DNA of 20,000 bases. Source: an uncultured virus (IMG/VR IMGVR_UViG_3300009703_000011) (lineage: Duplodnaviria > Heunggongvirae > Uroviricota > Caudoviricetes). The DNA is taken from IMG/VR virus record IMGVR_UViG_3300009703_000011. One strand, written 5' to 3'. Numbering within the stretch: the first letter of the stretch is position 1; each line of letters starts with the position of its first letter. This document shows, in pieces, positions 5,418 through 19,983 of this stretch. Below the pieces are notes generated by a model. It was not told the DNA's origin. It saw nothing but the letters and a program-made list of their open reading frames with translations, and ran no database searches. The translations under genes were made by a program, and so were the position numbers.

Positions 5418-6034
5418 ATGAGACTAGCCAAAAATACATCAAAACAATCTAATCATAACTTCTTTTCAACTTGGAATGAAAACTCAGCATACATGATGGG
5501 ACTCTTAGAAGCTGATGGCTGTATAGAAAATAATAAAAAAATAACATATTCAGCAGCGGAAAAAAAGATAAAGATCATGTATATAAAACACACCAATTAT
5601 TTAATTCAAACGTAAAAATTGGCGTGGCAACCTGGAAAGGATACAAGAAATATAGATATTCAATAACATCACCACAGATGGTTTCTGATCTAAAAGATGC
5701 AGGATTTCGTTCAGGGCAGCTTCCTTGTATTCCTGAAGGGTTAATGCACCACTGGTTAAGAGGCCTATTCGATGGTGATGGTAGTGTGTATATTGATAAA
5801 ACTAATAAAACTTATGTAAGTATAGTTTTTTCAACTAAAGAATTTGCTACTAGCGTTCTTGACTATATTGTTAGTCAAATTGGCTTTAGTTCAGGAATGA
5901 AAATTTATAAAAAAACAATGGCCGAGTGCTGGTATTTTAGAGTAGCAAAACAAAGTTTAGTAACAGCATTCGGTAATTTAATCTATGACAATTCAACAAT
6001 TAAACTGAATCGAAAATTTCACAAGTTTAACTAG
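5418..6034 (+). mobile_element. free-standing two-motif LAGLIDADG homing endonuclease gene split by a -1 frameshift (ORFs 5418-5615 and 5624-6034)
   Basis: Motif 1 AYMMGLLEADGC and motif 2 HWLRGLFDGDGS. A -1 shift at A_AAA_AAG (5561-5567) joins them into about 205 aa (..SAAEKKDKDHVYK..). More AT-rich than its flanks. Confidence 0.85.
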
Positions 6035-8631: not shown

Positions 8632-8959
8632 GAGGATAACAGAAGTAGACATTTCAACTGTTGCTCCTGACTCACAAGAGTGTAAGATTATTATCTTGCA
8701 CGTTATACACCAGGCCATAAAAGACTATCAACACTTTAGGCACAAAATTAGACCGGAAGAAATAGAGGTGTACGAGAGTGCATCTAACTTCCTGTTTGAT
8801 GATGAGTATATGTTTGACTGGGGCACAGATGTTGTGAACCTTAGAATGCTATGTGAACATGTTCATATGGATATCGATTGGTTAAGAAATCAAGTAGTTA
8901 AAAAAATAGATTTAACATTCAATGACGACGGGACTATTGTTCCCGAAAGAAGATACTAA
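8624..8959 (+). CDS. hypothetical phage protein (I..QAIKDY...A..F...LC....D..WL pattern)
   Basis: Start ATG 8624 overlapping the previous stop; TAATG overlap with the next gene. Confidence 0.7.
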   Translation: MGKRITEVDISTVAPDSQECKIIILHVIHQAIKDYQHFRHKIRPEEIEVYESASNFLFDDEYMFDWGTDVVNLRMLCEHVHMDIDWLRNQVVKKIDLTFNDDGTIVPERRY

Positions 8960-9549
8960 TGAGATTTTTAATTGATGTTGATGGGGTCGTAGCGGATCTT
9001 ATAACAACGATGATTGATGATATTAATCAAGCACATCGTAAGTATAAAACGAGATTAAACCCTGAACACATAACTGATTTCTACTTTATGAATCCAGATC
9101 TAGGAATACTTTCCCCAGGAGAGTGTAAGTTTGCTATTAGAAACTTCGCTCGTCCTGGGCTTGCCTATGAGCTTCAACCTATTCCAAGTGCAGTCGAAGG
9201 TGTTCAGAAGCTGGAGAATGCAGGCCACGAAGTGGTGTTTGTTACTAGTGACTGGCAAGAATCTAGAACCTGGGTTAATGATAGGCGAGCCTGGATCTCT
9301 GAGCATTTTGGTGATCAAGAGGTTATATTCTGTCACAAGAAACATTATGTTATTGGTGATGTATTAATTGATGACAGAGCTAAGACATGTGAAACCTTTG
9401 CAACTGCACACCCAGAAGCACTTGTTCTTATGTATGATCAACCATGGAACAGAGATCATCTAATCCAGGCTGGAAATATACAACAGTTTAACTGGGGAGT
9501 CCTTGACTACATGCTTGAACATAATCTTTTCCCACACAGGAAAAAATAG
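8959..9549 (+). CDS. 5'(3')-deoxyribonucleotidase (HAD, NT5C family)
   Basis: HAD motif I DVDGVVAD, FVT, K...GDVLIDD, QPWN. Confidence 0.9.
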   Translation: MRFLIDVDGVVADLITTMIDDINQAHRKYKTRLNPEHITDFYFMNPDLGILSPGECKFAIRNFARPGLAYELQPIPSAVEGVQKLENAGHEVVFVTSDWQESRTWVNDRRAWISEHFGDQEVIFCHKKHYVIGDVLIDDRAKTCETFATAHPEALVLMYDQPWNRDHLIQAGNIQQFNWGVLDYMLEHNLFPHRKK

Positions 9550-10146: not shown

Positions 10147-11122
10147 TAATTTAGAGCTAATGCTAGCTGGGGTTAATAAGAAGTACGGAAAGAATACGCT
10201 AAGAACCCTTGGTGGAGATGAAGTTGTTGATATACCCAGACTTACTACAGGAGTCGCCTCTCTTGATGAGGGAAGCGGTGGAGGCTGGCCATGGGGTCGT
10301 ATTATAGAGATATATGGACCAGAAAGCTCAGGAAAGACTACTCTCACTCTGGAAGCTATTGCACAAGCCCAGAAACAGGGAAAGGTTTGTGCCTTTGTTG
10401 ACGTAGAACATGCTCTTGATGTAGTCTATGCTCAAAATCTTGGTGTTAACGTAGAAACACTTCTCATCTGTCAACCTGATACGGCAGAGGAGGCTCTTGA
10501 TATAGTAGAGATCATGTCCAACTCTGGAACCGTTGATCTTATTGTAGTTGACTCTGTTGCAGCACTCGTTCCAAAGAAAGAATTAGAAGGTGAGATGGGC
10601 GATCATGTTGTTGGCCTTCAGTCTAGGTTAATGTCTCAGGCCATGAGAAAACTAACTGGTGCTGTTTACAGAAACAATGTTCTTCTATTTTTTATCAATC
10701 AAATCAGACACAAAATAGGTGTTATGTTTGGTTCACCTGAGACTACTAGCGGAGGTAACGCTCTTAAGTTTTATGCGTCTATAAGGTGTGATATTCGTAG
10801 GCTTAAACAGGTTAAGGATGGAGACACATCGGTAGCGAATGAAACAAGGGTTAAGTTCGTTAAAAATAAGGTGGCGCCACCCTATGCTACTTCAGAATTT
10901 GTTATCAGATTTGGCACTGGCATAGATAAGATGACTGACCTCTTGCGAATTGCTGTTAAGCATAAGCATATTAAAAAGTCAGGCTCCTGGTTCTCCTACA
11001 AGGATGAGAACATTGGACAAGGCGAACCTAACGCTTCAAAGTTTCTAGAAGAAAATGAAGAAATTACAAATGAAATCAGAGAGTTGCTCAAGCCAAAAGT
11101 TATTGCAGAGGATGACTTCTGA
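10121..11122 (+). CDS. recA: recombinase RecA
   Basis: [73 protein letters not shown] 10121 fits SD GGAGG 10109-10113 better than GTG 10115. Confidence 0.97.
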
Positions 11123-11140
11123 TTCACACGAGGTTATAGA

Positions 11141-11428
11141 ATGGATATATGTGTAACTACACGAACAGGAACATTACGAGGTTTGGTAGTAACTGAGAAG
11201 ATAAAGCTTACCATTAGTGAGGGCAAACCTATTCCCAGTACCTTCCTGGGTGGTCTCACTATATCTGATTACATAATAGCTCCTGCTTTTGAGAGGCTTA
11301 TTGTTGTACGATATGGAATGGTAGGTGGATCAAAGATAATCAATAGAATAAAAGTTTTTCTAGATGGTGTAGTTGGAAGAGAAGCTCTTCAGCCTTCACG
11401 ACCCAGTGACCCACTACTCCTGGAGTAA
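11141..11428 (+). CDS. hypothetical protein
   Basis: 95-aa ORF with upstream GAGG, filling the gap between recA and dnaE-PHP. Confidence 0.6.
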   Translation: MDICVTTRTGTLRGLVVTEKIKLTISEGKPIPSTFLGGLTISDYIIAPAFERLIVVRYGMVGGSKIINRIKVFLDGVVGREALQPSRPSDPLLLE

Positions 11429-11451
11429 TTCAGATGACTTACAGAGGTGAT

Positions 11452-11481
11452 ATGCAGGTGACAGATTTTTGTCACTTGCAT
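11452..11481 (+). other. 13-bp RNA hairpin over the 5' end of the PHP gene
   Basis: ATGCAGGTGACAG-ATTT-TTGTCACTTGCAT: 11 Watson-Crick plus 2 G-U pairs; it ends on the His codon just before the TAG of the 8-nt insert. Confidence 0.8.
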
Positions 11482-12419
11482 TAGTTTAAGTACACAGTAT
11501 GTATTCTATTCTAGATGGAGAGAATAGGATAGAAGCTCTCGTTAAGAAGGTTAAAGAATTAGGCATGAAACATTGCGCCCTTACAGATCATGGTACAATG
11601 ATGGGCATACTTGAGTTTTATAAAACTTGTAAGAAGTATGACATTAAACCTATCATGGGTGTAGAGGCATATATAACTGATGATGAAGATGGGATTCCGA
11701 AAGAGGAGAGAACAAGAGATAACAACCACCTTGTCATGGTGGCAGAAACTAATGAAGGTCTTAAGAACCTTTTTTGGCTTACCTCTAAGGCGCAGACCGA
11801 GAACTTCTATTTCAAACCAAGAATATCAAAAAAGAATCTTACACCTGAGAGAACCAAAGGAATAATTGTTTCCTCTGCTTGTCTTGGTGGACAAATTAAT
11901 AGGTGTGGTGGTTACAATCCTGAAACCAATATCTATGAAGGTCAAGATGAGATGGAGCGGTTGGCGAAGTGGTATTCTAAAACCTTCAATGGAAACTACT
12001 ACCTAGAGATTCAAGATAATGATGATGCACAACAGATTGCATATAACTCAGTCTTAAAAACAATCTCAGAGAAGAATAATATTCCCCTTGTTATTACATC
12101 GGATGCTCACTATACAGAACTTGAGAGTAGTGAGACTCATTCCTTTTTAATGGCAATGCAGTTTAAGAAAACATTACAGCAGTATGAAGAAGATGGAATC
12201 ATGAAGTATGGACCATGGTTCTATGTTCGGAGTCCAGATCAGATGTTAGAAGCTGCTAAGAAATATCAAAGTGAATCAGCATTTTGGAATACATGTGACA
12301 TAGCAAAAAGATGCAATGTTGACATTGAAATTGGTGTCTATAAAAACCCAGAGTTTGATATTAAAACTCAACCAGACTATGAAGACTTTAAAAGGTCTCA
12401 AGGAGAAGATGATGTCTGA
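11452..12419 (+). CDS. dnaE: DNA polymerase III alpha subunit, stand-alone PHP domain (5' segment interrupted by an 8-nt insert at 11482-11489)
   Basis: MQVTDFCHLH* (11452-11484) is followed in another frame by VHSMYSILDG (from 11490), TDHG, GVEAY, NNHL, SACLGG, YLEIQ, TSDAHY. The main ORF in the track is 11499-12419. Confidence 0.9.
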
Positions 12420-12681
12420 ATTATCAGATCGAATTCCAGTACTTCAAGAACAAGTTGTTGTTATTGTTGAGGCTGTACAGAAACAAAAAGAAGAAAAGAA
12501 GACAATGGCAAAGTCTTATAATGAAACAATCAAAGCTCTTGAAGCTGAACGTGATACCCTACTCCTTGAGCTTAACGCTACTAAGGATCAGGTTAAACAA
12601 GAAGCCTTGGTAGAGAAGGCTGATGATATCATCAAGGCTAATGCATCACCAGGTGGTGAAACTCACGAATTAATCCTCTAG
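12412..12681 (+). CDS. small coiled-coil hypothetical protein between dnaE fragments
   Basis: SD AGGAG 12401-12405, ATG 12412, overlapping the PHP stop; E/K-rich heptad character. Confidence 0.7.
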   Translation: MSELSDRIPVLQEQVVVIVEAVQKQKEEKKTMAKSYNETIKALEAERDTLLLELNATKDQVKQEALVEKADDIIKANASPGGETHELIL

Positions 12682-12690
12682 GGGGTAACT

Positions 12691-13059
12691 GTGGCAAAAA
12701 GAACAAGGCGGAAGAAGGGACCTGACGGTAATTTATATACAAAAGAACAGTGGAATAAAAAGTGTGGACCTGGAAGTGCTTCGAGTAATAGTTCAACAAT
12801 AGATATTAAAACGCAAGAACAGGTACAGAGAAATACCAATAAGAAACCTGTCATAGAGGAGAAAGCTAGTAAAACTGAGAAGAATAACGCACCAACACTT
12901 ATAGTTAGTTACGTATCTTCTAATGGAAACAGAATTACTAAATCTTTTCAATGTGCTTGTATCCAAATGAACGAAGACAAAACTACAGAGATGATGCTAT
13001 CAGGTCCAAAAACTAAGCTCCACTTATCTGTGGAGGCTGATGTTATAGAGGTACTCTAA
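12691..13059 (+). CDS. basic hypothetical protein between dnaE fragments
   Basis: GTG start after GGGGGT; 122 aa; its stop abuts the dnaE core ATG. Confidence 0.7.
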   Translation: MAKRTRRKKGPDGNLYTKEQWNKKCGPGSASSNSSTIDIKTQEQVQRNTNKKPVIEEKASKTEKNNAPTLIVSYVSSNGNRITKSFQCACIQMNEDKTTEMMLSGPKTKLHLSVEADVIEVL

Positions 13060-15825
13060 ATGAGTGAGCTGGATGACTACTATGTTTACAAGACAGAAAG
13101 GGGTCTTGCAGATCGTATCTCTAAACTCGCCTATGAAGTAGACGAGAAGGCTTACAAGGAGAGATTGGAATATGAAAACAAGATCATCATACAGATGGGT
13201 TACCCCGGCTACTTCCTCGTTGTACAGGACTTCATCAACTGGGCTAAGTCACAAGGTATCCTCGTTGGGCCTGGACGGGGGTCTGGTGCTGGTGCTCTGG
13301 CTTGCTTTGCCACAGGTATTACTAACGTTGACCCTATTCCCTTTGGGCTCATTTTTGAACGGTTTCTTAATCCTGCTCGGGTTTCAATGCCTGATCTTGA
13401 CATTGATTTCCCGAAAGGGCGACGTGAAGAAGTCATTCAGTATGTGAGAGATAAGTATGGAGCAGACAAGGTTGCACAGATAGGAACCTTTGGAACTCTA
13501 AAAGCTAAGGCATCGATCAAGGCTGCTTGCAGAACTCTTGGACTTCCTATACCCATGGGTGAAGAGCTAACGAAAATGTGGCCGAAGCCAGAACATGGTA
13601 AGGAGGTTAGCTTTCAGAATGCTCTAACTACTGTGCCAGATCTTAATCGTACCTACCGCTCCGCAGGGGAGAGGGGTGAGATTTTAAGATGGGCAGAGAA
13701 GATCGAGAACAGGATTTCATCTTTTGGAATCCATGCTAGTGGTGTTGTTATAGCCAATGAACCACTGCACGAAACAGTTCCCCTGGCTCTTGGTAAGAGA
13801 GGGGAGATTGTAACCCAGTGGGACATGAACAGAGTTGAAGACGTTGGTCTTATCAAGTTTGACTTTCTTGGTTTGAAGAACTTAGATGTAGTTCAGTTAG
13901 CTGTAGATCTAATCAAGAAACAAAAGAAGATTGAAATTGATATAGAGAATATACCTCTAGATGATGAGAAGGTTTATTCTAATCTACGTAAGGGAGATAA
14001 CATTGGCGTCTTCCAGCTGGAGTCTTCTAGTGGTATGAAGGATCTGTTAGTTAAGATCAAACCATCATGCCTAGAAGATCTTACAGCACTTGTAGCAATC
14101 TATAGACCTGGACCACTTGGTTCAGATAAGCTTGAAGATTATTTAAGCTGGAGAGCTGGAACTTCAGAACCAGTTTATTACCACCCAGACTTAGAGCCTA
14201 TCCTGAAGTCAACTGGTGGGTGGATTATATATCAAGAACAAGTACTTAGAATAGCAAGAGACTTGGCAGGTTATGATCTTGCCCAGGCTGATCTTCTTCG
14301 TCGAGCTGTTGGTAAGAAGAAGGCTAGTGAGATGCTTAAGCATAGAGCTGGGTTCCTGAAGGGAATAAAAGCTAATGGTTATACAGAAAACCTAGGTATA
14401 ACTCTTTGGAATGCCATAGAGATTTTTAGTTCATATGGGTTCAACAAAACAGTTGACAAGGATACCTTAGTTGCTACCGTAAATGGAGACAAGAGAATAG
14501 AGGACTGCTCAGAGCTAGATACTGTTTTCACAGTTGCCAACTCTGGAGAGATTGTTCAGTCGCAAGTTGTTGCACTTCACGATCATGGAAACGTACCTCT
14601 TTGGGAGGTAGAGTTTGATGATGGAAGTATCGAAAGATGTACTCTTGACCACAAGTGGCTTACAATATTTGGACAGCAACCACTTTGGAGAATCCTCCAA
14701 GAAGATATCCAGACCTTCGGGAACAATTCCCAAGAGTCAGGCAACAAGTTTGCCGAGGTCGGGAAAAAGGTCTATCCGAGTCAGGACAACACACTGTGGA
14801 ATAACAAAAACACAAACAATCAAAGCTTTGAGGGACCATCAAAGGCAGTGCCTGGAATGTCAAAGGCTAAGGAAGTTGATTCGTCAAAAGACGAGGGCCA
14901 AGTCAAACAGGTCTTCCCATATGAGAAAGATAGCATCCGAAACAGCAAAGAAAACCTCAGCAAGACCAGAGATACAATTACAAAGAGCGAAGGTTCTAAA
15001 GAAGTGGAGAGATTCACACCCAGAACAGTTCGCTTTGATAAAAGAAAAAGCACACTCATCTCCAAAGCTCTCCAAGATGGAGATTTGGTTACAACCTATT
15101 CTCCAGAAGCTGGGGTTTGTTCGCTCAGTCCAACTGAGGTGTGGTATAGAAAGGAAGCAAGTAGATTTCGTAAATCACTCAATGCAAACAGCAATAGAAG
15201 TGGATGGACCTTGGCATTTTCTACCGGTGAATGGAGAAGAGAACCTAAAGAAAGTTCAAGACCGGGATCGAATGTTAGAACAAGAGATTATTCATCGAAA
15301 CTGGAGGCTGATTCGTCTTTCAATGGAGAACTTTCACTCCTCTGGGAGACTTACAAAAATAAGCTTGGAACACCTTTTCAGTTTAATAGAAAGCAAACAA
15401 TATCCTCCAATCTTACTGGTAGGAAAGTTATACGAATCAGTTATAAAGGAATCTGCCAAGGTTATGATCTTGAAGTAGATCATCCAGCACATAACTTCTT
15501 GCTTAGCTCTGGTCTTTGCTGCTCTAATAGCCATGCCGTTGCCTATGCTACAATCTCTTACTGGTGTGCCTATCTTAAAACGTACCATCCTGTTGAATTC
15601 ATGACTGCTGCTCTTACAATGGATAGTGGGAACATGGATCAGATGATTATCTATTTACAAGAGTGTAAGAGGATTGGTATCCAGGTTCTCCCTCCTGATA
15701 TTAATGAGTCTGATTTGAATTTTACTCCAGTTGCCAACACTGTTAGGTTTGGCTTCACTGCGATAAAGAACTTGCGTGAAGGACCAGGTAATCACATAAT
15801 TGAGAAACGAAATGAAGAAATTTAA
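13060..15825 (+). CDS. dnaE: DNA polymerase III alpha subunit catalytic core, intein-containing
   Basis: GPGRGSGAG, FERFLNP.R.SMPDLDIDF, GIHASGV, KFDFLGL, GVFQLES, YRPGP, IYQEQ, AD.LRRA.GKK; YGFNK/SHA.AY is rejoined after intein removal. Confidence 0.95.
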   Translation: MSELDDYYVYKTERGLADRISKLAYEVDEKAYKERLEYENKIIIQMGYPGYFLVVQDFINWAKSQGILVGPGRGSGAGALACFATGITNVDPIPFGLIFERFLNPARVSMPDLDIDFPKGRREEVIQYVRDKYGADKVAQIGTFGTLKAKASIKAACRTLGLPIPMGEELTKMWPKPEHGKEVSFQNALTTVPDLNRTYRSAGERGEILRWAEKIENRISSFGIHASGVVIANEPLHETVPLALGKRGEIVTQWDMNRVEDVGLIKFDFLGLKNLDVVQLAVDLIKKQKKIEIDIENIPLDDEKVYSNLRKGDNIGVFQLESSSGMKDLLVKIKPSCLEDLTALVAIYRPGPLGSDKLEDYLSWRAGTSEPVYYHPDLEPILKSTGGWIIYQEQVLRIARDLAGYDLAQADLLRRAVGKKKASEMLKHRAGFLKGIKANGYTENLGITLWNAIEIFSSYGFNKTVDKDTLVATVNGDKRIEDCSELDTVFTVANSGEIVQSQVVALHDHGNVPLWEVEFDDGSIERCTLDHKWLTIFGQQPLWRILQEDIQTFGNNSQESGNKFAEVGKKVYPSQDNTLWNNKNTNNQSFEGPSKAVPGMSKAKEVDSSKDEGQVKQVFPYEKDSIRNSKENLSKTRDTITKSEGSKEVERFTPRTVRFDKRKSTLISKALQDGDLVTTYSPEAGVCSLSPTEVWYRKEASRFRKSLNANSNRSGWTLAFSTGEWRREPKESSRPGSNVRTRDYSSKLEADSSFNGELSLLWETYKNKLGTPFQFNRKQTISSNLTGRKVIRISYKGICQGYDLEVDHPAHNFLLSSGLCCSNSHAVAYATISYWCAYLKTYHPVEFMTAALTMDSGNMDQMIIYLQECKRIGIQVLPPDINESDLNFTPVANTVRFGFTAIKNLREGPGNHIIEKRNEEI
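14449..15528 (+). mobile_element. intein (360 aa) in DnaE at YGFNK|SH
   Basis: Removing residues 464-823 restores YGFNKSHAVAY. Block A-like TVDKDTLV, block B CTLDHKW, block F GYDLEV..HNF, block G SGLCCSN|S. Confidence 0.9.
14618..15478 (+). CDS. DUF559/Vsr-like (EDxHD-type) endonuclease nested in the +1 frame inside the intein
   Basis: SKME..L...L..LGF, VDF......AIEVDG.WH, DRDR......NW.LIRL; N-terminal HCG...H...C..C; SD GGGAGGT 14603-14609, 8 nt before ATG 14618. Confidence 0.85.
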   Translation: MMEVSKDVLLTTSGLQYLDSNHFGESSKKISRPSGTIPKSQATSLPRSGKRSIRVRTTHCGITKTQTIKALRDHQRQCLECQRLRKLIRQKTRAKSNRSSHMRKIASETAKKTSARPEIQLQRAKVLKKWRDSHPEQFALIKEKAHSSPKLSKMEIWLQPILQKLGFVRSVQLRCGIERKQVDFVNHSMQTAIEVDGPWHFLPVNGEENLKKVQDRDRMLEQEIIHRNWRLIRLSMENFHSSGRLTKISLEHLFSLIESKQYPPILLVGKLYESVIKESAKVMILK

Positions 15826-16783
15826 GGACTTCTTTGATTTTTGTAAAAGAGTTGACACTGGGCTTATAAATAAGAAGAAGCTCGAATCCCTAATCTTATC
15901 AGGTGCTTTTGATTTTACACAGCAGACCAGAAGCACTCTGCTTCAGGCGCTAGAAGATGTTCTCGTTTTTAAATCAGAACGAAAGAAGTATGAAAAGAAA
16001 CTTGAGACCTTTCATAAAAAGACTGAGGCTTATCTAGAAAGACTTGAGGCTATAGAGAGGGACGAGAAGGGTGCTAATGGAAACAAGCTAAGACCTTTCA
16101 AGAAACCAGAAGAGCCTCTTGCTCCAGGTCAACCATCTTATGCACATGAAGAGGAGATGTCTCAGCAGCTCCTTCTGCAGAAAGAGAGAGAACTTACAGG
16201 GTTCTTTATTTCGGGTCATCCTCTTGACGGGTTTGGCTCTAGGATAAAGACTACTATAAGATCTTTAAGAGTTAATAAACCTGAGCAAATTGATTTTGTA
16301 TGTATAATTTCAGATACTACAATCAAAGAATCAAAGAAGAAACAAAGATATGCCTTTATCAGGTTTGAAGATTTAACTGGAACCATAGAAGGTGTAATCT
16401 GGCCATGGTTATATAAGAAGAACAAACATAATATTCTACCCAACATACCAGTCAGGGTTGCTGCGAAGGTTACTTATACTGAAGCAGAACCAGATGAAGA
16501 CTCTGTAGAGGATGAAGTAATTCCATATTTGGATATCAAACACATAGAACTATTGGAGAAGCCTGCACAGGAGAGTATGAATATTAGGATGGATGTTCCA
16601 CTAACAATGAAAAACATTTCTTCTGTAAAGAAAATTCTTGAAAAGAATGCTGGCCAATCAGGTGTTGCGTCTGTTAGGTTTTCATCTAACTCAGGCAGTA
16701 CGCTTGGTGTACCCAAGGTTTATGGGATTAATAAAAATGGAAGAACAATTAGAACAGAAGTCCTCAGAGTTACAAAACAGTGA
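15812..16783 (+). CDS. dnaE: DNA polymerase III alpha subunit C-terminal part (HhH + OB fold)
   Basis: FKDFFDFCKRV, NKKKLESLI.SGAFD, KERELTGFFISGHPL, AFIRFEDLTG.IE..IWP. It is in the +1 frame relative to the core; ATG 15812 (or TTG 15800). Confidence 0.9.
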   Translation: MKKFKDFFDFCKRVDTGLINKKKLESLILSGAFDFTQQTRSTLLQALEDVLVFKSERKKYEKKLETFHKKTEAYLERLEAIERDEKGANGNKLRPFKKPEEPLAPGQPSYAHEEEMSQQLLLQKERELTGFFISGHPLDGFGSRIKTTIRSLRVNKPEQIDFVCIISDTTIKESKKKQRYAFIRFEDLTGTIEGVIWPWLYKKNKHNILPNIPVRVAAKVTYTEAEPDEDSVEDEVIPYLDIKHIELLEKPAQESMNIRMDVPLTMKNISSVKKILEKNAGQSGVASVRFSSNSGSTLGVPKVYGINKNGRTIRTEVLRVTKQ

Positions 16784-16940
16784 GGTAGAAAACCCTAGTT
16801 ATATTGGTCTACTAGGGGGGCTAACATTAATAACCCTACCATTGATAGGGATTGCTGCTATTATAGGCCTAGTTAAGACTATTGAGTTTTTAGATGAATC
16901 AGATGAAGACTCAAATCAAGATGAGGTTGATAATATATGA
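16737..16940 (+). CDS. small membrane protein
   Basis: Probable ATG 16737; one hydrophobic stretch (IGLLGGLTLITLPLIGIAAIIGLV) and an acidic tail; ATGA overlap with the next gene. Confidence 0.55.
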   Translation: MEEQLEQKSSELQNSEVENPSYIGLLGGLTLITLPLIGIAAIIGLVKTIEFLDESDEDSNQDEVDNI

Positions 16941-18373
16941 AGTGGACAAATGAAGAACTGGATCTTTTATCTAAATATCGTTCAGATATAAAACCAATAA
17001 GAGTCTATGAAGGCTACGTCTCAGAGTTTGGAGCAATTCGTTCCTACGATTCTGTACAGAAGAAGTTTAGAACTCTACGAGAGGATCTGGAACCAACTGA
17101 ACCTGAACTCCATGATGAGGATGATGAACAAGAAGATCAAACACCCTATGTCTTTGAGAAGTATAAGTATATCAAGGAAGCTGATGAGTATTGGATCCCA
17201 ACGAAGAGGGGGTTCTTACAAATTAGTGGTTCAAGAATCAGACAGCTAGTTAGCGACTACTCGAACTTTGGCGCAAAGAAAACCAGGAATGTAGTAGCTC
17301 GTGAGTTTGGCTGGGCTAGAGATGCCGTAATCGATGTCCTAAAGGTTCTTGGAAAGACACATGATTCTGCACCCTTTACAGATGAAGTATTACTAGAGGA
17401 GCCAGTTGAAGAACTAGTAGCTTCTTTGGTAAGAAAGAAAGAAGGTCGTGTAATTGCTAAGGCTGAAAGGTTAGAGCAGGTAGCTCTTGAGAAGAATGCG
17501 CTCAAGTGGCAAGAAATTGAACGAACAATCAAGAACGTGTTCGCCGATAAAGATTATCAATCACTATCAAAACAACCGGTTCTTAAGTTGAAGAAACCAG
17601 AGGTAGATTTTGATTTAGTTCTGTATCACACAGATGCACACGTAGGAAAATTAGCTCATGGCTGGAACTATGATGAGACTCGTAGGATCATTCTAGAAAC
17701 TGCAGAACGTGCACTTGCACATGCAACTGCCTATGGACAACCGAATCGTATCATTACTGGAATCGGTGGTGACTGGGCTAACATTGATACACCAGGACAC
17801 ACAACGACTAGGGGAACCCCACAGAATAGTAGCGCTGAGTGGTATGACATATTAGATGGTGCTAACCAGATCACTCTAGACCTCCTTAGATTACTGAGAC
17901 AGGCAGCTCCAGTTGCAGCCTATACAGTTCCAGGTAACCATGATCGTATGTGGAGCATGTTAGCAGGTTCCTGGTTGAACAGACTGTTTGAAGAAGATGA
18001 CCGTGTCGAAGTACATACTCATCAACATCGTCATTATATTGAATCAGGTAAGAATTTAATTATGCTTACACATGGTGATGGATGCAAACCACGAGAGTAC
18101 CCATCTATAATGGCTGCTGAATCTGCAGAGATATGGGGAAGAACTAAACATAGATATGTATATCATGGTCATCTACATCATGAAGTAGTGAGAGAGAGTC
18201 GTGGAGTAATTGTTACACAGATGCCCAGTATTACACCCGATGACAACTGGCATTTACATAGTGGTTATGTGGGAAACCGAAGAGCACTTACGGCACATGT
18301 ACATAATTATGAAGCAGGGCGTGTAGCTCAATTCAATATAGCAGTTAGCGATGATGGTGAAATACTAGGCTAA
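16937..18373 (+). CDS. calcineurin-like metallophosphoesterase with N-terminal Myb/HTH-like region
   Basis: D.H.G (TDAHVG), GGD, PGNHD, THGD, GHLHH; N-terminus KWT.EE..LL...RS..SV..K. Confidence 0.85.
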   Translation: MKWTNEELDLLSKYRSDIKPIRVYEGYVSEFGAIRSYDSVQKKFRTLREDLEPTEPELHDEDDEQEDQTPYVFEKYKYIKEADEYWIPTKRGFLQISGSRIRQLVSDYSNFGAKKTRNVVAREFGWARDAVIDVLKVLGKTHDSAPFTDEVLLEEPVEELVASLVRKKEGRVIAKAERLEQVALEKNALKWQEIERTIKNVFADKDYQSLSKQPVLKLKKPEVDFDLVLYHTDAHVGKLAHGWNYDETRRIILETAERALAHATAYGQPNRIITGIGGDWANIDTPGHTTTRGTPQNSSAEWYDILDGANQITLDLLRLLRQAAPVAAYTVPGNHDRMWSMLAGSWLNRLFEEDDRVEVHTHQHRHYIESGKNLIMLTHGDGCKPREYPSIMAAESAEIWGRTKHRYVYHGHLHHEVVRESRGVIVTQMPSITPDDNWHLHSGYVGNRRALTAHVHNYEAGRVAQFNIAVSDDGEILG

Positions 18374-19306: not shown

Positions 19307-19486
19307 ATGAGTAAGTATGAAAGAGAAATCGATGAAGCAGGTGACGAGCGCCTGAAAACGGAGTCAATCGAGGTTTGCACAGAGCCAGATGATGATCCTG
19401 GCTGGCGTAAGCAGTACGAGGCAGCATGTCTCACCATTGCCGCAAATGCTTCAACGATAGCTGCCAGTGCGGCGGCTACGACTTAA
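19307..19486 (+). CDS. small hypothetical protein (59 aa), possibly chimeric
   Basis: ATG 19307 after AGGA; MSKYEREIDEAGDERLKTES...AAATT*; not in the ORF track. Confidence 0.5.
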   Translation: MSKYEREIDEAGDERLKTESIEVCTEPDDDPGWRKQYEAACLTIAANASTIAASAAATT

Positions 19487-19496
19487 GGAGAGTGTG

Positions 19497-19916
19497 ATGC
19501 ACCCAAACAAATATGAGAAGCTCCCCCCCGGCACGTTGGCGAAAATGAGAACCGAGCGCGACGAAGCCCGCGCAGAGGTCGAGCGACTGAAGGAAGGATT
19601 AGATGCATGGGCAGCCGAGGCCGTAAAAATAGATAATGAGCGCAAAGTTCTAACCGCGCAGCTGGCGACGGTGGTTGAGGCACTAGAATCAGCGCGCAGG
19701 TGTTTGACAGCATCGCCCCGTGACTGGGCTGCAACGTCACGAGACGCTTGGTTATGGGGGTTGCTGGTTGGTTGGGGGCCCGAATCAATAAACGAGGATC
19801 TTAAATCCAGGTGCGGGTGGTCACCGGACGATATCGCCAGGCTTGGGCGGCTGCGTCTCGCAATAGACACCCTCGACGCCACCAATACCGAGGAGGATAC
19901 CGATGGCGAAGGATGA
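19497..19916 (+). CDS. hypothetical phage protein with coiled coil (ERDEARAEVERL)
   Basis: SD AAGGAG 19485-19490, ATG 19497; GC-rich codon usage unlike the rest of the window. Confidence 0.75.
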   Translation: MHPNKYEKLPPGTLAKMRTERDEARAEVERLKEGLDAWAAEAVKIDNERKVLTAQLATVVEALESARRCLTASPRDWAATSRDAWLWGLLVGWGPESINEDLKSRCGWSPDDIARLGRLRLAIDTLDATNTEEDTDGEG

Positions 19917-19983
19917 ACTTGAAGCAGTCAACGTGACATGGAGCGCGGCGTTTTTGAAGACACCGAGGAAAAGTGATGAATAA
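19903..19983 (+). CDS. 26-aa ORF, probable truncated gene remnant
   Basis: Strong SD GAGGAGG 19890-19896 and ATG 19903; stops early where the composition returns to AT-rich. Confidence 0.4.
   Translation: MAKDELEAVNVTWSAAFLKTPRKSDE

Follow-up and report, generated by a model that had tools for sequence, protein, structure and literature searches.

The gene for the PHP (proofreading) part of dnaE in an uncultured phage is interrupted within its metal-binding motif by an 8-nucleotide (nt) insert, TAGTTTAA, and the best-supported mechanism for reading across it would be a short programmed translational bypass, or stop-hop, in which a peptidyl-tRNA leaves CAU 11479 and re-pairs with CAC 11493. 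We put the probability of this reading, which rests on sequence comparison and predicted folding, at roughly one half. The analysis covered 20,000 nt of the IMG/VR record IMGVR_UViG_3300009703_000011 (Caudoviricetes), a stretch referred to here as the window, and positions are those of the window unless the locus of a relative is named.

The insert was located on the plus strand between HLH and VHS of the PHP metal-binding motif. Upstream of the gap the sequence reads ATG(11434) ACT TAC AGA GGT GAT ATG(11452) CAG GTG ACA GAT TTT TGT CAC TTG CAT(11479-81) TAG(11482-84), and from the stop on it reads TAG(11482-84) TTTAA GTA(11490) CAC(11493) AGT ATG(11499) TAT TCT ATT CTA GAT GGA. Translation of the leader frame gave MTYRGDMQVTDFCHLH followed by the TAG stop, and the downstream frame passed TAA 11487-89 and then continued as VHSMYSILDGEN. 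A first-pass annotation, made from the letters alone, had described a stop-containing 8-nt insert that splits PHP motif I and places stops in both usable frames (TAG 11482, TAA 11487), and the sequence was found to be as claimed. DNA alignment with four relatives showed an 8-column gap exactly at 11482-11489, a tblastn match against a relative resumed at 11490, and the closest relative (locus L007 on the 61.6-kb IMG/VR contig G001, 72% identical over PHP) reads MNLNDFCHLHTHSVYSILDG without a break. Deletion of exactly 8 nt restored the canonical motif, and the HxH of the window PHP exists only across the gap. The annotated Shine-Dalgarno (SD)-like sequences GGAG and GAGGTG were also recognized upstream, with none before ATG 11499.

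The remaining ligand motifs (TDHG, GVEAY, NNHLV, SSACLGG and TSDAHY), which the same annotation had listed as intact, were all present and identical to those of the closest relative, and the window protein deviated at 2 of 73 family-conserved columns in comparison to a mean of 3.5 in 91 intact family members. Judged from its sequence, the PHP gene beyond the insert looks selected. Simpler ways of reading through the gap were rejected, as the leader frame enters unrelated sequence and TGA if TAG is read as a sense codon, a -1 or +2 frameshift is stopped by TAA 11487, and the frame reached by a +1 shift does not lead into dnaE. A repeated or mobile element as the source of the insert was rejected as well, since the 8-mer occurs 3 times in the window versus 1.18 expected and neither the 16-mer junction nor the 5' arm of the upstream hairpin described below has a second copy.

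Logan contigs of two subsurface-metagenome runs each covered positions 10500-17000 in one piece and differed from the window over this interval by 4 and 6 substitutions and 0 gaps, such that the window and the two contigs (X1 and X2) represent three slightly different haplotypes that all carry the insert; contig depth in the two samples was 10x and 20x. The possibility raised at first pass that the reads might lack the insert was not borne out, as the reassembled contigs of both runs contain it with no indel. It is important to note that the two runs may be the source samples of the window and that contigs hide rare variants, and the reassembly therefore excludes an assembler slip and establishes fixation in the majority population, but nothing beyond this, and is not an independent biological replication. 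An artefact of assembly or sequencing is contradicted by these contigs, and together with removal of the 8 nt from the RNA, by a micro-intron or by editing, it forms a very improbable alternative whose one point in favour is the canonical motif restored by the deletion. The micro-intron or precise excision proposed at first pass finds no support, as no known mechanism fits it and we know of no bacterial or phage mechanism that removes 8 nt from an mRNA; among the sequencing runs listed for this DNA, none was of RNA. An exact 8-nt skip by the ribosome is less likely than the hop because tRNA-His would then sit on UAA.

A scan of the whole window for hairpins of at least 11 bp, allowing loops of 3-10 nt and no more than one G-U pair, identified only two in 20 kb, hairpin 1 and hairpin 2, and these flank the gap (Table 1). 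The minus strand of the window contained none under the same criteria, and 30 mononucleotide shuffles gave a mean of 0.17 such hairpins per 20 kb. The first of the two is the 13-bp hairpin that had been predicted at first pass to end at the CAT before TAG, and it was recovered with its full pairing. For the 106-nt region as a whole the fold had z = -3.75, a stability that none of 200 shuffles (0 of 200) reached, and a 20-nt AU-rich single strand between the two hairpins holds the gap. The 5' arm of hairpin 1 consists of the start codon and codons 2-4, and its 3' arm consists of the C-H-L-H codons and ends at the take-off codon, such that the least constrained codons (residues 1-4, variable among relatives) are paired with the most constrained. 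This pattern of pairing is the expected outcome of selection for structure. In hairpin 2 the inner 5 bp are formed by the conserved ILDGEN codons and the outer 6 bp are lineage-specific.

Signals typical of bypassing in the window include a stop codon directly after the take-off codon, synonymous His codons for take-off and landing, and an AU-rich gap. One tRNA-His reads both CAT and CAC, and the match between the two codons stems from the His-rich motif and is not independent evidence. What we infer of the behaviour of the ribosome, at every step, is as follows. Translation would start at ATG 11434 or 11452, and the 16- or 10-codon leader would be translated with hairpin 1 melted. The ribosome would then pause at the stop, with UAG in its A site and peptidyl-tRNA-His still paired to CAU 11479-81, and the 3' arm of hairpin 1, once out of the ribosome, would re-pair with the already exited 5' arm and pull the mRNA forward. 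The tRNA-His would unpair, slide across the AU-rich UAGUUUAAGUA and re-pair with the cognate CAC 11493-95, hairpin 2 at the mRNA entrance would act upon landing as a forward barrier, and decoding would resume at AGU 11496. The predicted product, ...DFCHLH-SMYSILDG..., would be two residues shorter than the ancestral HLHVHS and would keep the ligands, and its HxH-S...D spacing is also found in natural members with two His residues (P0078, THLHSHFSLLDG; P0081, PLHLHSLYS). The landing codon starts 14 nt 3' of the first base of the take-off codon, which is about the distance from P site to exit needed for closure of hairpin 1; as the stem closes only after its 3' end has exited, the P site would by then be about 12-14 nt past the take-off codon, where CAC lies. 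In the current model of gene 60, bypassing is driven forward by the pairing of mRNA as it exits until the ribosome lands, and overshoot is limited by a 3' barrier (10.1101/2024.12.09.627546); the geometry of the window fits this model.

A second IMG/VR locus, L054, whose PHP is 44% identical to that of the window, was found to be broken at the same motif. It reads GTG GAG TCT TTT ACG CAT CTC CAC CTT CAC TGA AGGAT ACT CAG TAT, which translates as (M)ESFTHLHLH, a stop, five bases, and then TQYSLLDG, and its unbroken sister L002 reads MNFTHLHLHSQYSLLDG. The L054 insert, TGAAGGAT, is likewise 8 nt long and stop-led directly after a His codon, and it arose independently, since its sequence differs and its site lies one His codon further on than that of the window. 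The layout of the L054 leader is also similar, with 10 codons, a start codon in the 5' arm of a hairpin (GAAGGTGGAG...CTCCACCTTC, 10 bp, 1453-1484) and a 3' arm that ends in the take-off codon; no other hairpin in the 3.9-kb locus reaches 10 bp, and shuffles gave 0.27 hairpins of that size. In addition, a 5-bp stem (ACUGA/UCAGU) links the take-off codon and stop to the resume site in the manner of an A-site stem-loop, an outer stem pairs the SD region with codons past the gap (element 1436-1560), and the 125-nt region has z = -3.39 versus -0.37 for L002. The first possible start codon (ATG, GTG or TTG) in the downstream frame of L054 lies 14 codons after the resume codon, on the far side of the LDG ligand, and restart therefore cannot rescue this gene. 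A search with the L054 sequence returned L054 itself only.

The best 120 members of the family in the protein collection, with that of the window included (P0001, recorded from a 150-kb contig), were surveyed for further breaks. The called N-terminus lacked HxH in 29 of the 120 gene calls; 17 of the 29 had a later start at a conserved Met before ALTDHG, many of them on short contigs that are perhaps truncated and others on long contigs (P0005, P0041, P0076, P0085 and P0105), and P0098 and P0108 carried residue substitutions in an otherwise contiguous motif. Ten of the 120 were broken at or just past the motif (P0001, P0013, P0014, P0015, P0022, P0031, P0037, P0038, P0080 and P0120), and the contigs that encode P0001, P0013, P0014, P0015, P0037 and P0038 measure 25-197 kb. 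In a rapidly built maximum-likelihood tree, from which three rows without the TDHG anchor were left out, the broken members were scattered, with at least six changes forced by well-supported branches, and in the closer clade a broken member stood beside an intact sister in P0015/P0012, P0014/P0032 and P0001/P0002. The N-terminal extensions of P0014, P0015, P0031 and P0080 were compatible in a shifted frame with H-[LIV]-H-x-H and a stop, a fit seen in 4 of 20,000 control 16-mers from the same proteins, and residue counts implied inserts of 11, 7, 7 and 10 nt, respectively; P0013-P0015, P0022, P0031, P0037 and P0080 are known from protein sequences alone, and neither P0013 nor P0014 is present in IMG/VR. 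The triplet before the resume codon was TAY, TAY, CAY and GAY in the four decoded gene calls and GAT in L054 (all NAY), which fits re-pairing of tRNA-His at two of three positions. Deviations at the 73 conserved columns numbered 0-4 in the broken members and 9 in P0080, and the broken members are thus as well conserved as the intact ones, whose mean is given above.

These results can tentatively be extended to a wider reading, to which we give somewhat less than an even chance, that stand-alone PHP genes of widespread uncultured phages repeatedly gain stop-led inserts of 7-11 nt at the His codons of metal-binding motif I and cross them by hairpin-driven stop-hops of tRNA-His. The hairpin would in each case pair the start of a short leader with the take-off region, and the window would count as one case among several that arose independently. 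Disruption of a homing site of a nuclease or intein, or throttled production of the proofreading subunit, may explain why the inserts are kept. For the window itself, homing-nuclease immunity, a translational throttle and a repair scar are candidate reasons for the insert, and the gating of proofreading-domain production by the gap, as suggested at first pass, is speculation.

Examination of relatives at the DNA level gave a different picture for the insert of the window itself. The 5' ends of 15 distinct relatives (L001, L002/3, L004/5, L008, L009, L010/11, L012, L013, L014-20, L021, L053 and L055-L058) all carried an uninterrupted HxH(S/T) motif, and nine relatives that were folded showed no stem of at least 8 bp over leader or motif (L013 gave no anchor). 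The insert and hairpin 1 are therefore specific to the lineage of the window, as no relative shares either of them. In two IMG/VR pattern scans, for HS.YS.LDG preceded by a His codon, TRR and a spacer of up to 14 nt, none of the 23 + 2 = 25 matches was a true split, all of them being ordinary genes with the hexamer out of frame; the patterns demanded Tyr and a post-gap His codon, and L054 was therefore not findable by them. A scan of genome contigs for the DNA of the broken members returned one relative, which was intact. Among cultured phages, with 120 of 912 tblastn matches listed, the gap candidates Gordonia phage NosilaM and Streptomyces phage Oliynyk were rejected, being plain gene overlaps of 1-4 nt. 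The hop from CAT 11479 to CAC 11493 proposed at first pass remains the best-supported mechanism and is strengthened by the layout of L054 and the scattered breaks in the family. The same annotation had named a consistent lack of inserts in homologs as grounds for rejecting its proposal, and this holds for half of the evidence: no relative has the same insert or hairpin, and L054 has its own stop-led insert.

The lack of this insert in the relatives and of true splits in the pattern scans weighs against the hop, and several further observations do the same. In the predicted fold 11479-11492 is not stably paired, which leaves the window without an A-site stem-loop, and no SD-like sequence is present in its gap. 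With only 10-16 residues, the leader leaves no room for a nascent-peptide signal like that of gene 60, and peptidyl-tRNAs with short peptides are prone to drop-off. A near-cognate UAC at 11491-93 precedes CAC in the wrong frame, and AUG 11499 offers a simpler restart. A 2-nt AY microhomology at the insertion junction would account for the NAY triplets just as well as selection of a landing site, as the placement by the aligner suggests. The intein within the dnaE core begins with Thr rather than Cys or Ser, and its splicing is therefore putative. Finally, dnaE has a second frame break near 15815, in which SEGGKFQ of G001 corresponds to NE/G/KFK in the window with a net +1 frame change; it splits Pfam HHH_6 47/45, where G001 has one unbroken ORF of 881 amino acids (aa). 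No structure (z = 0.22) and no matched codons were detected there and no relative has the same split, and recoding at this site was rejected on these grounds. A break free of signals weakens the certainty that the gene works, as it indicates either tolerated fragmentation or decay.

Termination followed by reinitiation is the first alternative that has to be weighed. Release would occur at UAG 11482 and the ribosome, confined between the two hairpins, would restart at AUG 11499, 15 nt downstream, which lies in the unpaired AU-rich stretch between the stems. The product would start with MYSILDG and lack the first beta-strand and both His ligands, such that proofreading would be lost and the protein may perhaps serve as a structural subunit. 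The called protein begins at such a Met in three sources (P0001, and P0013 and P0022 in other lineages), and the second break also has a restart codon, ATG 15812, which overlaps the upstream stop TAA 15823 and makes restart possible there, such that this lineage may simply live with the gene in pieces. Sliding and reinitiation by 70S ribosomes are documented in the part of the literature considered (PMC11194080). However, AUG 11499 has no SD, and the remaining ligands are conserved here and in other broken members even though this product would be without two metal ligands and a barrel strand. In L054 restart is no answer, which argues against reinitiation as a general solution, and point mutations of the His codons would be a far easier route to loss of activity than recurrent 7-11-nt inserts at one spot. 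We consider this alternative unlikely, if still a serious one.

The second alternative is a recently inactivated gene, in which the insert and the frameshift at 15815 are plain lesions of a dnaE that is being lost or is no longer needed; the hairpin would then be older than the insert, for example a translational operator that hides the start codon, and palindrome-associated breakage and repair at its base would have produced the insert. The presence of two independent frame breaks in the same gene, of which the second has no signals, agrees with this interpretation, as does the position of the insert exactly at the foot of an inverted repeat, which is a known fragile place. DNA-cutting selfish elements are abundant in the genome, among them a nuclease-bearing intein and a LAGLIDADG gene in decay, and the haplotypes that bear the lesions differ at no more than 6 positions in 6.5 kb, so the lesions could be young. 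On the other hand, the lesions are fixed in all three haplotypes at the depths given above in two samples, the roughly 4.7 kb of dnaE contain no further stops, the frame of the intein stays open against expectation, and the conserved columns are intact. No family A or B polymerase was found in the 61.6-kb colinear relative G001, a record estimated to be only 32% complete, and an insert of this type with this hairpin layout was gained separately by L054 and, it seems, by several further lineages. Inactivation is in our view doubtful, and all readings besides the hop, the restart and the dying gene are together quite improbable.

The dnaE intein (14452-15522) lies after GFNK and before SHAVAYA and matches the Npu DnaE intein in the PDB (E 2e-8), and an ORF within it in another frame (14615-15478) is homing-endonuclease-like (phrog_559, 1.5e-11). 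The two frames overlap for 287 codons and are both stop-free, and codon shuffles kept the other frame open in 0/5000 and 2/5000 cases; in haplotype X2 a nonsense change affects the nuclease frame alone. Two ORFs (5418-5615 and 5624-6034; phrog_4645, PF14528) together represent a split LAGLIDADG homing endonuclease gene, which is inserted between genes that are adjacent in G001. No nuclease match in Pfam or PHROGs was obtained for the ORFs around the gap (11141-11428, 12410-12681 and 12691-13059), all of which are present in the insert-free G001. An intein at the HxH/S site was considered as the origin of the insert and rejected, as none was found there and inteins were seen in other ligand motifs. 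A single PHP protein with an intein was seen, P0131, in which a LAGLIDADG intein occupies SAC/LGG, and an intein of L056 (about 1350-1500) lies before EAY of GVEAY and ends in ...ILHN/C.

The window is gene-dense with about 40% G+C and forms part of a large uncultured phage, and it encodes RNase H, a clamp-loader-like ATPase, a dNMP kinase, RecA, ThyX and the split DnaE (Table 1). G001 is colinear with it over the full window length, with proteins 45-81% identical for most genes, and no match at the DNA level was obtained among INPHARED phages. The split between PHP and polymerase core, together with its two small ORFs, is common to the window and G001, and because of this it is an old and functional arrangement. 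The small ORFs (12410-13059; L007 8211-8865) have no assigned function and encode about 90 and 122 aa, one of them a coiled coil, and at their start and stop codons they overlap or directly adjoin the neighbouring genes in both phages. Between recA and the gene upstream of PHP, G001 holds about 3 kb with two ORFs of 312 and 667 aa (L007 3740-6710) that the window lacks. The 5'-nucleotidase (NT5C) of G001 lies in two overlapping ORFs in different frames (L007 1740-2169), the window copy (8959-9549) being whole, which indicates that frame breaks also occur elsewhere in this phage group. At the window end, G+C rises up to 0.47 (19450-19920) and long ORFs are open on both strands (19467-19916 plus; 19451-19885 minus).

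Table 1. Positions of the features of the split dnaE and its surroundings in the window (ORF, open reading frame).
Feature	Position	Strand	Details
Upstream ORF	11141-11428	+	Its end holds GGAG 11421-11424
GGAG, SD-like	11421-11424	+	9 nt 5' of ATG 11434; read from sequence
Leader ORF	11434-11484	+	Ends DFCHLH then TAG; 16 codons from ATG 11434 or 10 from ATG 11452
GAGGTG, SD-like	11444-11449	+	Just 5' of ATG 11452; read from sequence
Hairpin 1	11452-11481	+	13 pairs, -17.4 kcal/mol (RNAfold)
CAT (His), candidate take-off codon	11479-11481	+	Last sense codon before stop
8-nt insert	11482-11489	+	TAG in leader frame; TAA 11487-89 in downstream frame
Stand-alone PHP (proofreading) part of dnaE, downstream frame	11490-12419	+	Pfam PF02811 8e-42; starts 11490/11499
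CAC (His), candidate landing codon	11493-11495	+	Downstream frame; AGT 11496 would be the next codon decoded
ATG, alternative restart codon without SD	11499-11501	+	In 20-nt AU-rich single-stranded stretch between the two hairpins
Hairpin 2	11502-11531	+	11 pairs, -9.6 kcal/mol; starts 7 nt past candidate landing codon
Two small ORFs between PHP and polymerase core	12410-12681, 12691-13059	+	Conserved in G001
dnaE polymerase core, 921 aa, with DnaE-type intein 14452-15522	13060-15825	+	Pfam; tblastn gap 14451/15523; PDB intein matches
Second frame break, loop between two HhH motifs	15811-15825	+	Ancestral junction GAA/G/AAA 15814-15820; frame A stop TAA 15823
C-terminal part of dnaE, +1 frame	15812-16783	+	Possible restart ATG 15812

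To our knowledge, natural bypassing known from the bench is limited to T4 gene 60 with its homologs and to yeast mitochondria, with partial evidence for one Streptomyces phage terminase, and we found no literature on bypassing in dnaE or PHP genes. The interest of the present locus lies chiefly in the apparent occurrence of several independent events at one motif and in the direct testability of an element of about 100 nt (leader, hairpin, stop, short gap, landing codon and second hairpin), which would make an easy reporter for sliding driven by exiting mRNA. If such gaps are read through, gene callers systematically misannotate essential phage genes as truncated or broken, as in 10 of 120 cases at this motif. 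If the alternatives are true, the locus shows how far a phage replicase can be fragmented and yet persist in nature.

The nearest published case is the terminase gap of the phiHau3 type, where candidate short bypassing was described for the large terminase of Streptomyces phage phiHau3 and two prophages (Antonov et al. 2023, PMC10732093). According to the portion of that report used here, the terminase genes carry a pair of inserts of 10 nt and, in prophages, one of 7 nt, and the junction peptide was detected by mass spectrometry in E. coli (PMC10732093). Both systems share a frame-breaking insert of 7-10 nt between sequences that are adjacent in relatives, an occurrence in few lineages, an essential phage gene, a slow codon entering the A site at the start of the gap, and strong local structure. 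They differ in that the A-site codon of phiHau3 is a rare UUA with a regulatory proposal and that of the window is the stop codon TAG, and in the SD-like element invoked there. The junction peptide was found for a terminase gene, whereas the hop in the window is proposed for the PHP part of dnaE. Synthetic stop-hops in E. coli (Weiss et al. 1987, via Atkins et al. 2016, PMC5009743) resemble the proposed event in that the peptidyl-tRNA leaves a pre-stop codon and re-pairs with a matched codon a few nt further on, and differ in being artificial constructs of low efficiency without stimulators. The sections of the 2016 review considered here (PMC5009743) state that short counterparts had long been expected and that no natural in-frame stop-hop was known. 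An ordinary pseudogene with a small insertion would similarly show a frame-breaking insert near the 5' end and a second frameshift in the same gene, but the remaining gene here is without decay, the flanking structure is lineage-specific, and the same kind of insert recurs in other lineages.

In T4 gene 60, a 50-nt bypass forms part of a MobA homing-endonuclease cassette (Manning and Atkins 2022, 10.1101/2022.08.31.505936; Wills et al. 2024, 10.1101/2024.12.09.627546), and the comparison is drawn from the portions of these reports considered here. The window shares with it a stop directly after the take-off codon, one tRNA for the take-off and landing codons, a 5' stem-loop formed from exiting mRNA, an AU-rich gap and a structure 3' of the landing codon, and homing elements are numerous in both genomes. 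In contrast, the gap of the window is 11 nt between codons (with the 8-nt insert) versus 47 nt, its hairpin 1 abuts the take-off codon where the gene 60 stem-loop lies 9 nt upstream, and it has no A-site stem-loop, although L054 has one. The leader of the window also allows no nascent-peptide signal, it has no SD-like GAG, and its gap has no nuclease gene beside it and no homology to the gene 60 cassette. The element of the window would thus not be a member of the gene 60/MobA cassette family, and by its proposed mechanism it would belong with translational bypassing.

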